DNA of 3,513 nucleotides from Escherichia coli (GCF_003334335.1 NZ_QOWQ01000083.1), one strand, 5' to 3'. Positions 2,024 to 3,513 are shown, numbered from the stretch's first letter. Numbers and translations: made by a program. Notes: a model not told the origin generated them from the letters alone.

Positions 2024-2067
2024 ACAATTAAAAACTGTTGACACAAAACAGTTTTTAATTGTAGATT
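2024..2067 (+). promoter_or_regulatory. Second copy of the operator inverted repeat (O site 2) overlapping a strong rightward promoter
   Basis: CAATTAAAAACTGT (2025..2038) and ACAGTTTTTAATTG (2048..2061) are perfect reverse complements with a 9-bp spacer, extendable to 15-bp arms at 2024..2062. Consensus -35 TTGACA (2038..2043) is built from the left half-site plus spacer, and -10 TAGATT (2062..2067) follows an 18-bp spacer. The half-site is the same as at 988..1025 apart from single-base differences. Confidence 0.65.
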
Positions 2068-2246
2068 ATTTCCACTACCCCACCCCGCCCCACAGAACGC
2101 CAGGCAATACTTCGAGTTACCCGGCAGTGGTCAGGGGTTAAGTAGCCAGCCCGAGGCGTATGAACATGACGGCGGGAACACTTTATATAACAGCGCAGCA
2201 GGTTTTTAGTTCCGCTACCCCGGCGTTAAGGGGAAATGAGGTCAGC

Positions 2247-2399
2247 ATGGATACTATCGAGCTTGGCAACAACGAATCTCTGGTATGTGGAGTATTCCCC
2301 AACCTGGACGGCACGTTTACCGCGATGACGTATACCAGAAGCAAAACGTTTAAAACGGAAGCTGGCGCGCGTCGCTGGTTAGCAAGAAACTCTGACTGA
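2247..2399 (+). CDS. Small prophage protein, YdfA/YdaF-like (DUF1391-type); start uncertain, ORF is open from 2160
   Basis: GAGG Shine-Dalgarno lies 5 nt upstream of ATG 2247, giving 50 aa (MDTIELGNNESLV...RRWLARNSD). This size class matches the ~51-aa YdfA/YdaF proteins that follow the repressor gene in Qin/Rac prophages (from memory). The upstream in-frame ATGs at 2160 and 2166 lie within a possible secondary promoter (TGAACA 2161..2166, TATATA 2185..2190). Confidence 0.55.
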   Translation: MDTIELGNNESLVCGVFPNLDGTFTAMTYTRSKTFKTEAGARRWLARNSD

Positions 2400-2497
2400 T
2401 GAAGGTTAGTAATTAAAGAGTTCTCCACAGGCGAAGTGGAATACGTTCGCCGGACACGGGTAAGCATTCGGCATGCTCTTTAACAATCTGGGTATTC

Positions 2498-2944
2498 CTA
2501 ACCACAAAGGAATCGCATCAATTTGGATTTTGCAGACAGTTTCTCTTGTTGTTCTACGGAGATTCCTATTTTGATCTGGGTTTTTAAGATTGCGATATCT
2601 TTAAGCGACGACCAAATATTATCATCTGTTTTTTCCAGGAGCTTTAACTGCATTTTCAATTCCGAATCGGAATATTTTTCTGCATCATCATAAAGCTGCA
2701 GATATTCTGCGGATTTTCTCATTGCGTTACCTGACTTTTGTCCGAATCCGTAAATCGTTTGAACGGTTGCTATCACAACAATGAGAACTCCAGAAACTTC
2801 AGGAATAAATCCACCAATGACAGATGAACCGAGGATAATACTCACCACTGAGAAAAGTTTATCGAGACGACCAGTCGCTACAGAGAATAGTTGTTCAAGA
2901 AAATAATCATATAAAACCCTGTCAAGAATATCATCCCGGTCCAT
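2498..2944 (-). CDS. Hypothetical small inner-membrane protein: N-terminal amphipathic segment, two predicted transmembrane helices, charged helical C-terminal tail
   Basis: 148-aa ORF with AGGTGA Shine-Dalgarno 6 nt upstream of ATG 2944..2942. Hydrophobic stretches LFSVVSIILGSSVIGGFI and GVLIVVIATVQTIYGF are separated by the short loop PEVS, then a Lys/Glu/Asp-rich tail follows. The gene is convergent with the YdfA-like ORF and visibly AT-richer than flanking genes. No homolog recognised from memory. Confidence 0.7.
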   Translation of the reverse strand: MDRDDILDRVLYDYFLEQLFSVATGRLDKLFSVVSIILGSSVIGGFIPEVSGVLIVVIATVQTIYGFGQKSGNAMRKSAEYLQLYDDAEKYSDSELKMQLKLLEKTDDNIWSSLKDIAILKTQIKIGISVEQQEKLSAKSKLMRFLCG

Positions 2945-3003
2945 ATATCATCACCTGCTTGTTTGATTGTTGCTGTTCCCCCTCTCCTCTGAAGGAGCTG
3001 GAG

Positions 3004-3192
3004 ATGGTTTTGGTCGAATGTTTTTCTCAGGTATATGTTTCCTGGTATTCGGAATGTCCGCCCTGTCCGCAGGCTTACCAGTACCTGAACAATTCTTTTG
3101 AACCACCATATAAAACACCTTCCTGTTGTTGGGGATATCCAGATTATACAGATTTCCTGTTATTGGGGAATGACGGAAACCACCTCGCCTGA
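3004..3192 (+). CDS. Hypothetical Cys-rich small protein (62 aa); may be non-coding
   Basis: Consensus AAGGAG Shine-Dalgarno (2992..2997) lies exactly 6 nt upstream of ATG 3004. Product MVLVECFSQVYVSWYSECPPCPQAYQYLNNSFEPPYKTPSCCWGYPDYTDFLLLGNDGNHLA has 6 Cys including C-P-P-C. An equally long low-complexity ORF overlaps it on the opposite strand, and no family is recognised. Confidence 0.25.
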   Translation: MVLVECFSQVYVSWYSECPPCPQAYQYLNNSFEPPYKTPSCCWGYPDYTDFLLLGNDGNHLA

Positions 3193-3407
3193 CGTGGTTA
3201 AAAGCAGGCACACAACACGAAAGCGCACGGCGAGATTCCTTTGCATATAAGGCTTGTCGTTAAATTTCTTCGACCGTGCACTTCCGGTTGTGGCAGTCCG
3301 CGAAATGGCGCGGCGGTAAGTATGGCTGGGGCTTCCTCCATTGCTCCAGAAAATGCACCGGGTCGTCAGGTTGACCATACGCTTAAGTGACAGCCCCGCC
3401 ACAATAC

Positions 3408-3465
3408 CCATGTGTAGTATTTGGTGGCATCAGTTCTACTCCGTGACTGCTCTGCCACCCTTTTT
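3408..3465 (+). ncRNA. dicF: DicF-like prophage small RNA (cell-division-inhibitor sRNA family), 3' end defined by its intrinsic terminator
   Basis: TTTGGTGGCATCAGTTCTACTCCGTGACTGCTCTGCCACCCTTTTT is near-identical to my recollection of E. coli DicF (..TTTGGCGGTATCAGTTTTACTCCGTGACTGCTCTGCCGCCCTTTTT). The terminal stem differs by one compensatory change per arm (GGTGG/CCACC versus GGCGG/CCGCC). The 5' end is approximate because DicF is processed from a longer transcript, and the 5' ~15 nt do not match my memory of DicF. Confidence 0.55.
3423..3465 (+). terminator. Rho-independent terminator (3' hairpin of the DicF-like RNA)
   Basis: GGTGGCA (3423..3429) pairs with TGCCACC (3453..3459), with internal CAG/CTG pairing, followed by C then TTTTT (3461..3465). 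Orientation is + only: on the - strand the T-run would precede the stem. Confidence 0.6.
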
Positions 3466-3513
3466 AAAGTGAATTTTGTGATGCGGTGAATGCGGCTATG
3501 CGCACGCGGAACA

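Follow-up and report, generated by a model that had tools for sequence, protein, structure and literature searches.

A reversed two-gene cassette in the early-left DicF operon of an Escherichia coli prophage and its predicted antisense control

How a prophage survives its own abortive-infection genes on entering lytic growth is a question touched by a locus in a 3,513-nucleotide (nt) stretch of Escherichia coli DNA (GCF_003334335.1 NZ_QOWQ01000083.1), which we analyzed over its whole length and refer to here as the window. In this locus, a reversed, minus-strand cassette encoding a small open reading frame (ORF) and a two-transmembrane protein lies between an operator-controlled promoter (2038-2067, + strand) and the gene for the small RNA (sRNA) DicF (3409-3460, + strand). 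Phage P22 answers the question for its SieB protein with the sas antisense RNA; the same type of module appears in the window in front of an unrelated effector of predicted SLATT fold, and elsewhere it accompanies many other cargos. Because one regulatory module serves unrelated cargos, this solution to self-silencing may be general and modular.

The first-pass annotation of this DNA had held that, if DicF is processed from the transcript of the operator-controlled promoter, as in the dicB operon, this transcript must run antisense across a membrane-protein gene at 2498-2944, and that derepression would both yield the sRNA and interfere with the membrane-protein mRNA. From ORFs, family searches, and annotated E. 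coli relatives, we identify the window as the immunity and early-left region of a Qin/Rac-type lambdoid prophage. By homology, the locus is the P22 sieB/sas arrangement joined to the DicF-processing pathway of the Qin prophage. The sieB/sas arrangement is already known; new here are the cargo, the two-gene layout, and the coupling to DicF. The finding is thus largely explained by known biology, and it yields a testable general idea on how prophages silence their own defense cargo at induction.

A PsieB/sas-type control region on a reversed cassette

Relative to Qin of E. coli K-12, positions 2472-3199 form an inserted accessory cassette (a moron), as these 728 bp stand where K-12 has ~32 bp. 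The cassette holds two minus-strand genes: first a 52-amino acid (aa) proline-rich ORF (3109-2951), with the Shine-Dalgarno sequence AGGTG 6 nt before its ATG, and then the gene for a 148-aa two-transmembrane protein (2498-2944; Shine-Dalgarno AGGTGA before the ATG; phrog_6315, 1e-23). The latter, the membrane-protein gene of the first-pass annotation, is a real gene and is annotated as a coding sequence (CDS) in matching E. coli genomes, but it is one of two in an inserted cassette; the 3109-2951 gene, the insertion itself, the cassette promoter with its sas-like element (3105-3226), and an RNase III stem (3210-3292) had all been missed. Since the gene is part of a two-gene unit that fills a known slot, the arrangement is not unique to this locus.

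In front of the cassette lies a predicted promoter of the PsieB type (3170-3143, - strand; -35 TTCCCC at 3170-3165, 16-nt spacer, -10 TATAAT at 3148-3143; score 10.4). Its alignment with the P22 sieB promoter and 'sieB RNA start site', both annotated, places the predicted start of the cassette RNA at ~3136, with a 27-nt leader. Two minus-strand direct repeats, CCCCAAyAACAGGAA, occur in the predicted 5′ untranslated region (UTR; 3134-3120) and over the -35 hexamer (3168-3154), two matches compared with 0.01 expected; they are the counterpart of the CTGTAGGGG repeats in P22, lambda, and the K-12 prophage Rac.

The opposite strand carries a sas-like antisense RNA region (3105-3226, +), complementary to the start codon, Shine-Dalgarno sequence, and 5′ UTR of the 52-aa ORF (3105-3136) and continuing as structured RNA. 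By blastn, window 3141-3212 matches the P22 sas region at 57 of 73 positions (E = 2e-10). The published sequence of P22 sas RNA aligns with + strand 3105-3226 of the window, and sas was detected in infected cells (PMC13397905); sas antisense RNA from a superinfecting phage turns off SieB synthesis, a role in a translation switch that is summarized in PMC12197685 and PMC7067206. Multiple alignments reveal one order of parts common to the window, P22, lambda, Rac, and the diverged cassettes, namely start codon, Shine-Dalgarno sequence, repeat 1, -10, repeat 2 over the -35, and a CCACC...GTGG / GCCTG...CAGGC element.

Read as + strand RNA, repeat 2 folds into a conserved hairpin (3153-3179; TTTCC-T-GTTATT/GGGG/AATGAC-GGAAA) capped by a GGGG loop; this loop and the 3′ arm repeat the anti-5′-UTR sequence. 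The stem is kept in 28 unique variants via many compensatory changes, with a mean of -8.8 kcal/mol compared with -4.3 kcal/mol after shuffling, and in all 25 of 25 unique, mutually related variants folding is stronger in the early-left sense than in the cargo sense (means -8.67 versus -4.21 kcal/mol, 31 G-U pairs). This pattern argues that the structure under selection is a functional + strand RNA and, therefore, that + strand transcription normally reaches 3153-3179. A hairpin copy of the anti-5′-UTR sequence would suit target recognition.

Immediately beyond lies a highly conserved boundary element, CCACC-N3-CCTGA-N-GTGG-N2-AAAAG-CAGGC (3180-3209, +), the counterpart of the 3′ part of P22 sas. 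Its stems CCAC/GTGG and GCCTG/CAGGC overlap in the order A1-B1-A2-B2, which would fit a pseudoknot or alternative folds; compensatory changes are seen in the homologous cassette L005 (CTAC/GTAG) and in Rac (CCCGG/CCGGG), and most sequences of the element were gathered with a pattern that fixes the stem bases.

The position of the cassette matches its control region. Reversed sieB genes lie inside the early-left operons of lambda (pL-N-[sieB reversed]-ral), P22 (pL-24-[sieB/esc reversed]-ral), and Rac (racR-ydaG-ydaF(DUF1391)-[sieB reversed]-KilS-kilR), and by comparison with these the cassette occupies the sieB slot of lambdoid early-left operons: it too places a reversed membrane-protein gene with its own promoter inside the operon, abutting the upstream early gene without a terminator. 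Because the convergent genes of lambda and Rac likewise abut or overlap with no terminator between them, its absence is normal for the slot. Shared with P22 sieB/esc/sas are the homologous promoter region with two direct repeats flanking the -10 hexamer and the homologous structured early-left-strand region over the start codon and 5′ UTR. Unlike in P22, lambda, and Rac, however, the cargo protein is not SieB; the window has two genes (peptide and SLATT-fold protein) where P22 has one gene containing a nested esc frame, the antisense would target the start region of a small ORF, the sas-like element directly precedes the DicF RNase III stem, and no N/nut antitermination was recognized in the window operon. 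With the positional and regulatory features matching and the protein-family feature failing, the locus falls outside the sieB family.

The early-left promoter and the origin of DicF

The promoter that faces the cassette (TTGACA-18-TAGATT; 2038-2067, + strand) is of the dicBp type, with 10 of 12 positions matching. It is the top sigma-70 match of the window in a position-weight matrix scan (score 12.2) and takes the position of K-12 dicBp, between the repressor gene and ydfA. An operator palindrome, AAAACTGT-N9-ACAGTTTT (2031-2055), covers its -35 hexamer, and a second palindrome with identical half-sites lies between the cro-like and repressor genes (995-1019); this pattern has two matches in the window against 0 expected from 200 shuffles. 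A predicted repressor operator is thereby assigned to both the repressor/cro intergenic region and the early-left promoter. Because the -35 hexamer lies inside the palindrome and the same half-sites recur at 995-1019, "operator-controlled promoter," the term of the first-pass annotation, is a fair label.

The first gene of the operon is of the ydfA/ydaF type (DUF1391; 2247-2399, +; phrog_751, 3e-42). Window 2208-2392 aligns with K-12 ydfA at 88.6% nucleotide identity, and a DUF1391 family protein is annotated at the aligned position in the related loci L001 and L002. Next comes a conserved noncoding segment (2402-2471, +; 85.7% identity to positions 2561-2630 of L004, the K-12 Qin locus), whose K-12 counterpart sits just downstream of ydfC. 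L002 carries this 70-nt segment as well (81% identical), which in the window flanks the cassette on the side away from DicF.

At the far side of the cassette, DicF matches the full Rfam model RF00039 (3409-3460, +; E = 1.9e-12; 62 bits versus a gathering score of 48), and its terminator hairpin (-15.0 kcal/mol) and the following CTTTTT extend to 3465. The 5′ half of this DicF (3409-3435, CAUGUGUAGUAUUUGGUGGCAUCAG) is unlike that of K-12 DicF, with 62 bits compared with 77 in other DicF loci, and it resembles the segment CUGUGUGUAGUCCUGGCGGCAUCAG of the Rac sRNA KilS; the target specificity of the 5′ region may differ accordingly. Comparison with K-12 Qin shows that window 3200-3513 corresponds to the K-12 pre-dicF segment plus DicF. 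This region includes a long stem (3210-3292, +; z = -3.17, with 1 of 200 shuffles as stable) that starts ~10 nt past the cassette boundary and is homologous to a known RNase III substrate of K-12. [quoted passage not shown] The 3210-3292 stem is, by this homology, a predicted RNase III substrate. Long-range pairing of 2402-2471 with the pre-dicF region, by which the RNase III stem would loop out the cassette, was dismissed; the stem forms locally, at 3210-3292.

The Qin homology and the conserved RNase III stem support the proposal that DicF is processed from the operator-controlled transcript as in the dicB operon. Because DicF is, by that homology, cut from this transcript and the pre-dicF segment is conserved, the transcript must cross ~1 kb of minus-strand genes lying between the promoter and DicF, which includes all of 2498-2944; the antisense geometry that had been described is borne out.

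In its overall layout, the window resembles the K-12 Qin dicBF operon (ydfABC-dicF-dicB) in having a repressor-controlled promoter downstream of a dicA-type gene, ydfA as the first gene, and a conserved pre-dicF RNase III stem, DicF, and DicF terminator. It differs in that K-12 has ydfB and ydfC, with all genes co-oriented, and ~32 bp in place of the 728-bp reversed cassette; the window also adds relBE and a strong terminator between repressor and promoter. K-12 keeps a mere remnant of the boundary element (AAAAGTCAGACCA), which in L004 lies just before the RNase III stem (2655-2680, GAAAAGTCAGACCATAAC) and suggests that Qin lost its slot cargo by deletion. Numerous E. coli prophages, one of them from an O157:H7 strain, carry DicF and DicB downstream of a reversed cassette. 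The K-12 Qin prophage, the model for work on DicF, has probably been reduced by deletion from the ancestral and commoner layout.

The Rac prophage offers a second comparison. It shares with the window the order repressor, DUF1391 gene, reversed membrane-protein gene with a PsieB/sas-type element, sRNA, and cell-division inhibitor, whereas its cargo is genuine SieB and its sRNA has the body of KilS rather than DicF; an own promoter has been suggested for KilS. KilS (4906-5003 of L008, the K-12 Rac locus) sits at the DicF position when compared with window 3409-3513; it shares the 3′ half of the DicF terminator and downstream sequence (55 of 59 positions identical), and a homologous stem precedes it. 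The annotated 5′ end of KilS falls within the 3′ arm of this stem, a homologue of the Qin RNase III stem, and KilS may therefore arise by processing instead of being a primary transcript.

A predicted two-way switch and its competitors

Taken together, these features lead us to think it probable, though well short of assured, that repression keeps the cassette on and DicF off and that derepression gives one transcript that yields a sas-like antisense RNA silencing the cassette and then DicF. In the repressed lysogen, the cassette promoter (start ~3136) would drive the peptide and the SLATT-fold protein, while DicF and DicB would be off. Upon derepression, the 2038-2067 transcript would run through ydfA and then ~1 kb antisense across the cassette. 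Its 3105-3226 segment would act as a sas-like antisense over the translation start of the 52-aa ORF (5′ UTR, Shine-Dalgarno sequence, and start codon) and turn the cassette off, as P22 sas, which reportedly derives from the pL transcript, does for SieB, and head-on polymerase collisions may add to the silencing. RNase III would cut the adjacent 3210-3292 stem, followed by RNase E, releasing DicF. A single promoter decision would in this way flip two outputs in opposite directions.

The proposed interference with the membrane-protein mRNA thus gains a direct precedent in the homology of the 5′ region to P22 PsieB/sas, but its site shifts: interference concentrated at the 5′ UTR and start codon of the 52-aa ORF is more likely than a diffuse effect across 2498-2944. 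In the reverse direction, it is possible from the geometry that the terminator-less cassette transcript interferes with the operon promoter, and the reversed cassette could modulate the amount of DicF.

Along the way to DicF, no canonical + strand terminator was found in 2067-3409. The hairpins previously noted at 2430-2451 (-8.2 kcal/mol) and 2463-2477 (-2.6 kcal/mol) both exist as described, with no T-tract on either strand; we rejected them as terminators of either strand because the T-tracts are missing and the 2402-2471 segment that contains them both is kept in K-12, where no reversed gene is nearby. The + strand holds just two weak terminator-like sites in this interval, both within the minus-strand gene, at 2659-2673 (-4.2 kcal/mol) and 2696-2712 (-7.6 kcal/mol, tail ATTTTCTC), in keeping with the earlier view that no convincing intrinsic terminator separates the convergent genes. 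The 2696-2712 hairpin is a by-product of MRKSAEYLQ codons; as it is not conserved in the homologous cassettes L005, L006, and L007 and is weakened in L117, it was rejected as a selected terminator. Nor does any + strand promoter between 2945 and 3409 rise above chance, the best site scoring 8.5 against a shuffled maximum of 11.1 +/- 1.6, which agrees with the earlier report of no strong promoter directly upstream of the sRNA; the scan discriminates poorly, the shuffled 1-kb maximum of 11.1 being close to the 12.2 of the real promoter, and a consensus scan cannot exclude a promoter. For this reason, the lack of an internal promoter rests mainly on the K-12 experiments.

A number of points weigh against the switch. 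Read-through across the cassette, production of a sas-like RNA, and silencing of the cassette are each predicted from geometry, homology, and RNA-level conservation. Between the ydfA stop (2399) and DicF, ~1010 nt (2400-3408) are untranslated, and C exceeds G at 2606-2683, 2892-2995, and 3048-3151 (C/G ratio 1.5-2.1), whereas the ratio is <1 throughout the K-12 ydfC-dicF spacer; given this untranslated stretch, its C>G composition, and the absence of any known N-type antiterminator in these prophages, Rho-dependent termination could stop much of the early-left transcript. The hairpin and T-run at 2696-2712 might stop a fraction of transcripts. The sas-like region as a whole is thermodynamically ordinary (z = -0.18), with just the 3153-3179 hairpin and the RNase III stem standing out, and the 25 of 25 variants that share the strand asymmetry are related sequences and do not amount to an independent-sample probability. 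Finally, the 148-aa protein is not a SieB homologue and no nested esc-type frame was noted (internal starts were not analyzed), so the translational-switch logic of P22 cannot transfer in detail.

As an alternative, the cassette would act as a polar block that largely uncouples DicF and dicB from the operator-controlled promoter, with Rho or the 2696-2712 site stopping most transcripts in the 1-kb untranslated antisense stretch, DicF weak or silent, and the antisense overlap of little regulatory consequence. Rho does silence Rac and Qin genes (PMC4150792), and the relatives L007 and L005 carry real terminators at the cassette 3′ end, that of L005 facing the early-left transcript. We nonetheless judge such a block unlikely. 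The structural selection on the sas-region hairpin in the early-left sense implies that transcripts arrive, diverged homologues do not preserve the 2696-2712 hairpin, and the RNase III stem is intact, as are DicF and its terminator. The layout of reversed cargo followed by DicF recurs with different cargos, at least 10 of 121 boundary elements having DicF within 900 nt. In Rac, moreover, failed Rho termination inside racR leads to expression of the downstream kil, which is lethal (PMC4150792); on the Rac map, racR lies upstream of the reversed sieB and kil downstream, and such transcription has to cross sieB.

Less probable still is that an independent promoter in or just past the cassette drives DicF, or the sas-like RNA and DicF together. 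One candidate is the weak promoter-like site TGAACA-17-TATAAA (3086-3114, +); another would lie within the loop of the 3210-3292 stem. Global start-site data have been read as an own promoter for KilS, the positional equivalent in Rac (PMC8175672), and an older study, as cited in PMC10448788, proposed a second promoter upstream of dicB. Set against these are the scores over 2945-3409, none of them above chance, the absence of the 3086-3114 site from L005 and L007, the K-12 result that the homologous 5′ end is RNase III-dependent with no internal promoter found (PMC10448788), and the location of the KilS 5′ end, which may itself be processed. We give equally little credence to the view that the geometry is incidental, an ordinary moron in a recombination-prone slot with no mutual regulation, whose orientation merely avoids the lytic promoter and whose conserved flank is a recombination boundary or promoter DNA and not an antisense RNA. 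The 3180-3209 element does border a hypervariable slot (at least 29 cargo clusters among 108 elements), as is typical of mosaic boundaries; a variant class uses the element as the -35 and spacer of an extended -10 promoter (TGGTATnCT), which points to a role at the DNA level; and antisense placement is general among prophage accessory loci (PMC7067206). However, the compensatory changes of the hairpin in the class of the window, with their G-U pairs, work only in the early-left sense, and in P22 the experimental precedent is that sas RNA from the homologous region controls SieB synthesis. Were the coupling false, the locus would be an ordinary moron in a known hotspot.

The reading of one transcript that silences the cassette and then gives DicF invites a broader one, which we offer tentatively and ourselves rather doubt. 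The PsieB/sas region may be a portable self-silencing module that keeps any cargo of the slot on in the lysogen and lets early-left antisense turn it off at induction or superinfection, sparing the phage its own abortive-infection cargo. The cargos observed in the slot are SieB, the SLATT-fold protein plus its peptide, and no fewer than two dozen further protein families; in prophages with DicF or KilS one RNase III processing event would release both the antisense RNA and the sRNA precursor.

Cargos of the slot and the rest of the window

The 148-aa protein was modeled with AlphaFold2 from 74 sequences, giving an all-helical structure with two hydrophobic helices and a predicted local distance difference test score (pLDDT) of 89.2; it replaced a first model built from 6 sequences, which was too poor (pLDDT 49.7). 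Foldseek (afdb50) returned many full-length matches annotated as SLATT (SMODS and SLOG-associating 2TM effector), with template modeling (TM) scores of ~0.9 and E values from 2e-8 to 1e-6, and the shape of the model, an N-terminal helix, a two-transmembrane hairpin, and C-terminal helices, fits this family. Its sequence, in contrast, scores below every curated threshold. The SLATT profile NF033632 gave 15.2 bits against a cutoff of 55, the best family member reaching 24.1 bits, and Pfam SLATT_4 was found in 1 of 74 family members (E = 0.067), although sub-threshold SLATT_4 hits recur in the family (best E 2.7e-5). The 148-aa protein itself had no Pfam hit at E <= 10 and no PADLOC or PDB sequence match. 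The neighbors, comprising the 52-aa ORF and phage early genes, include no SMODS/SLOG-type nucleotide-signal partner, and the partner here is a small proline-rich ORF. On the structural model, we describe the protein as SLATT-fold and do not count it as a certified member of the SLATT family. Judged by analogy from its position and fold, the cassette probably functions in exclusion or abortive infection. Homology of the 148-aa protein to SieB was rejected: Pfam gave no SieB match, BLAST aligned the protein with neither Rac nor lambda SieB, and the hhalign probability was 0.5%.

The family of the 148-aa protein comprises 142 cluster representatives. In three other backgrounds (L005, L006, and L007), homologous SLATT cassettes with 57-70% amino-acid identity likewise run antisense to early-left genes, and there small ORFs of 43-50 aa homologous to the 52-aa ORF precede the SLATT gene despite DNA divergence; versions of 25-27 aa precede more distant SLATT cargos. 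The conserved motif of the ORF reads R-K/E-H-I/M-P-E-K-x-I/V-R-P-x-P-x-P-P. It has no PHROG match and is not annotated in the E. coli records examined. Two further minus-strand ORFs were discarded for want of a family match, one at 2951-3211 (86 aa from GTG), better read as the 52-aa ORF from 3109, and one at 3160-3411 (83 aa). A terminator for the cassette transcript was found neither in the window nor in L006. Some relatives have one: L007 carries a clean hairpin and T-tract after the SLATT gene (~3690-3730), and L005 has a hairpin and T-tract facing the incoming early-left transcript (~5490-5530).

The cassette is widespread. The 821-bp stretch 2400-3220 has matches of at least 80% coverage, with up to 99.9% identity, in 68 complete E. 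coli genomes, and the cassette occurs behind at least three types of repressor, namely DicA-like with relBE as in the window, RacR, and another helix-turn-helix repressor in the O157:H7 strain. Scanning viral contigs for the boundary element with the pattern CYACC-NN-GCCTGA-N-GTRG-NN-AAA (loci L014-L133) gave at least 121 matches, and the first genes next to 108 of the elements form at least 29 clusters. Among the elements listed, at least eight neighbor SieB-like and at least six SLATT-family cargos. In lambdoid prophages, the element delimits a hypervariable cargo slot on one side, and it may serve as a general launching pad for accessory genes. In the literature that we covered, incompletely, we found no description of PsieB/sas as a general cargo slot or of a SLATT-fold protein in that slot. 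A second class of elements (L015, L025, and L105) has the start codon only ~38 nt from the element, which there apparently supplies the -35 (TTCACC or TTAACC) and 16-nt spacer of the extended -10 promoter; a small leader hairpin, CTTGG...CCAAG, follows.

Upstream of the early-left promoter, the window contains a YdaT/cII-like gene (272-697, -) identified by ORF and family search, a cro-like gene (681-953, -) divergent from the repressor gene, a DicA-like repressor gene (1063-1464, +), and a relB/relE toxin-antitoxin pair (1492-1970, +). The repressor-relBE transcript ends at an intrinsic terminator (1987-2006, +; 8-bp stem, -13.2 kcal/mol, then T7), which shields the downstream promoter from upstream read-through. 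The pair and this strong terminator (1492-2006) form an insertion that separates the repressor gene from the early-left promoter; neither is present in K-12 Qin. Related early-left operons carry IsrK and C4 antisense RNAs, a control module for antirepressors (L002 6563-6751, L005 4008-4095, and L006 4044-4232), which lie downstream of, or replace, DicF and dicB. At the opposite end of the window, GTGACR occurs five times in 19-76 (at 19, 41, 51, 61, and 71, the last four spaced by 10 bp), with GTGACC at 30. These repeats look like iterons; in L001, the stretch aligns with the start of a minus-strand 'DnaT-like ssDNA-binding domain' CDS beside the gene for replication protein P.

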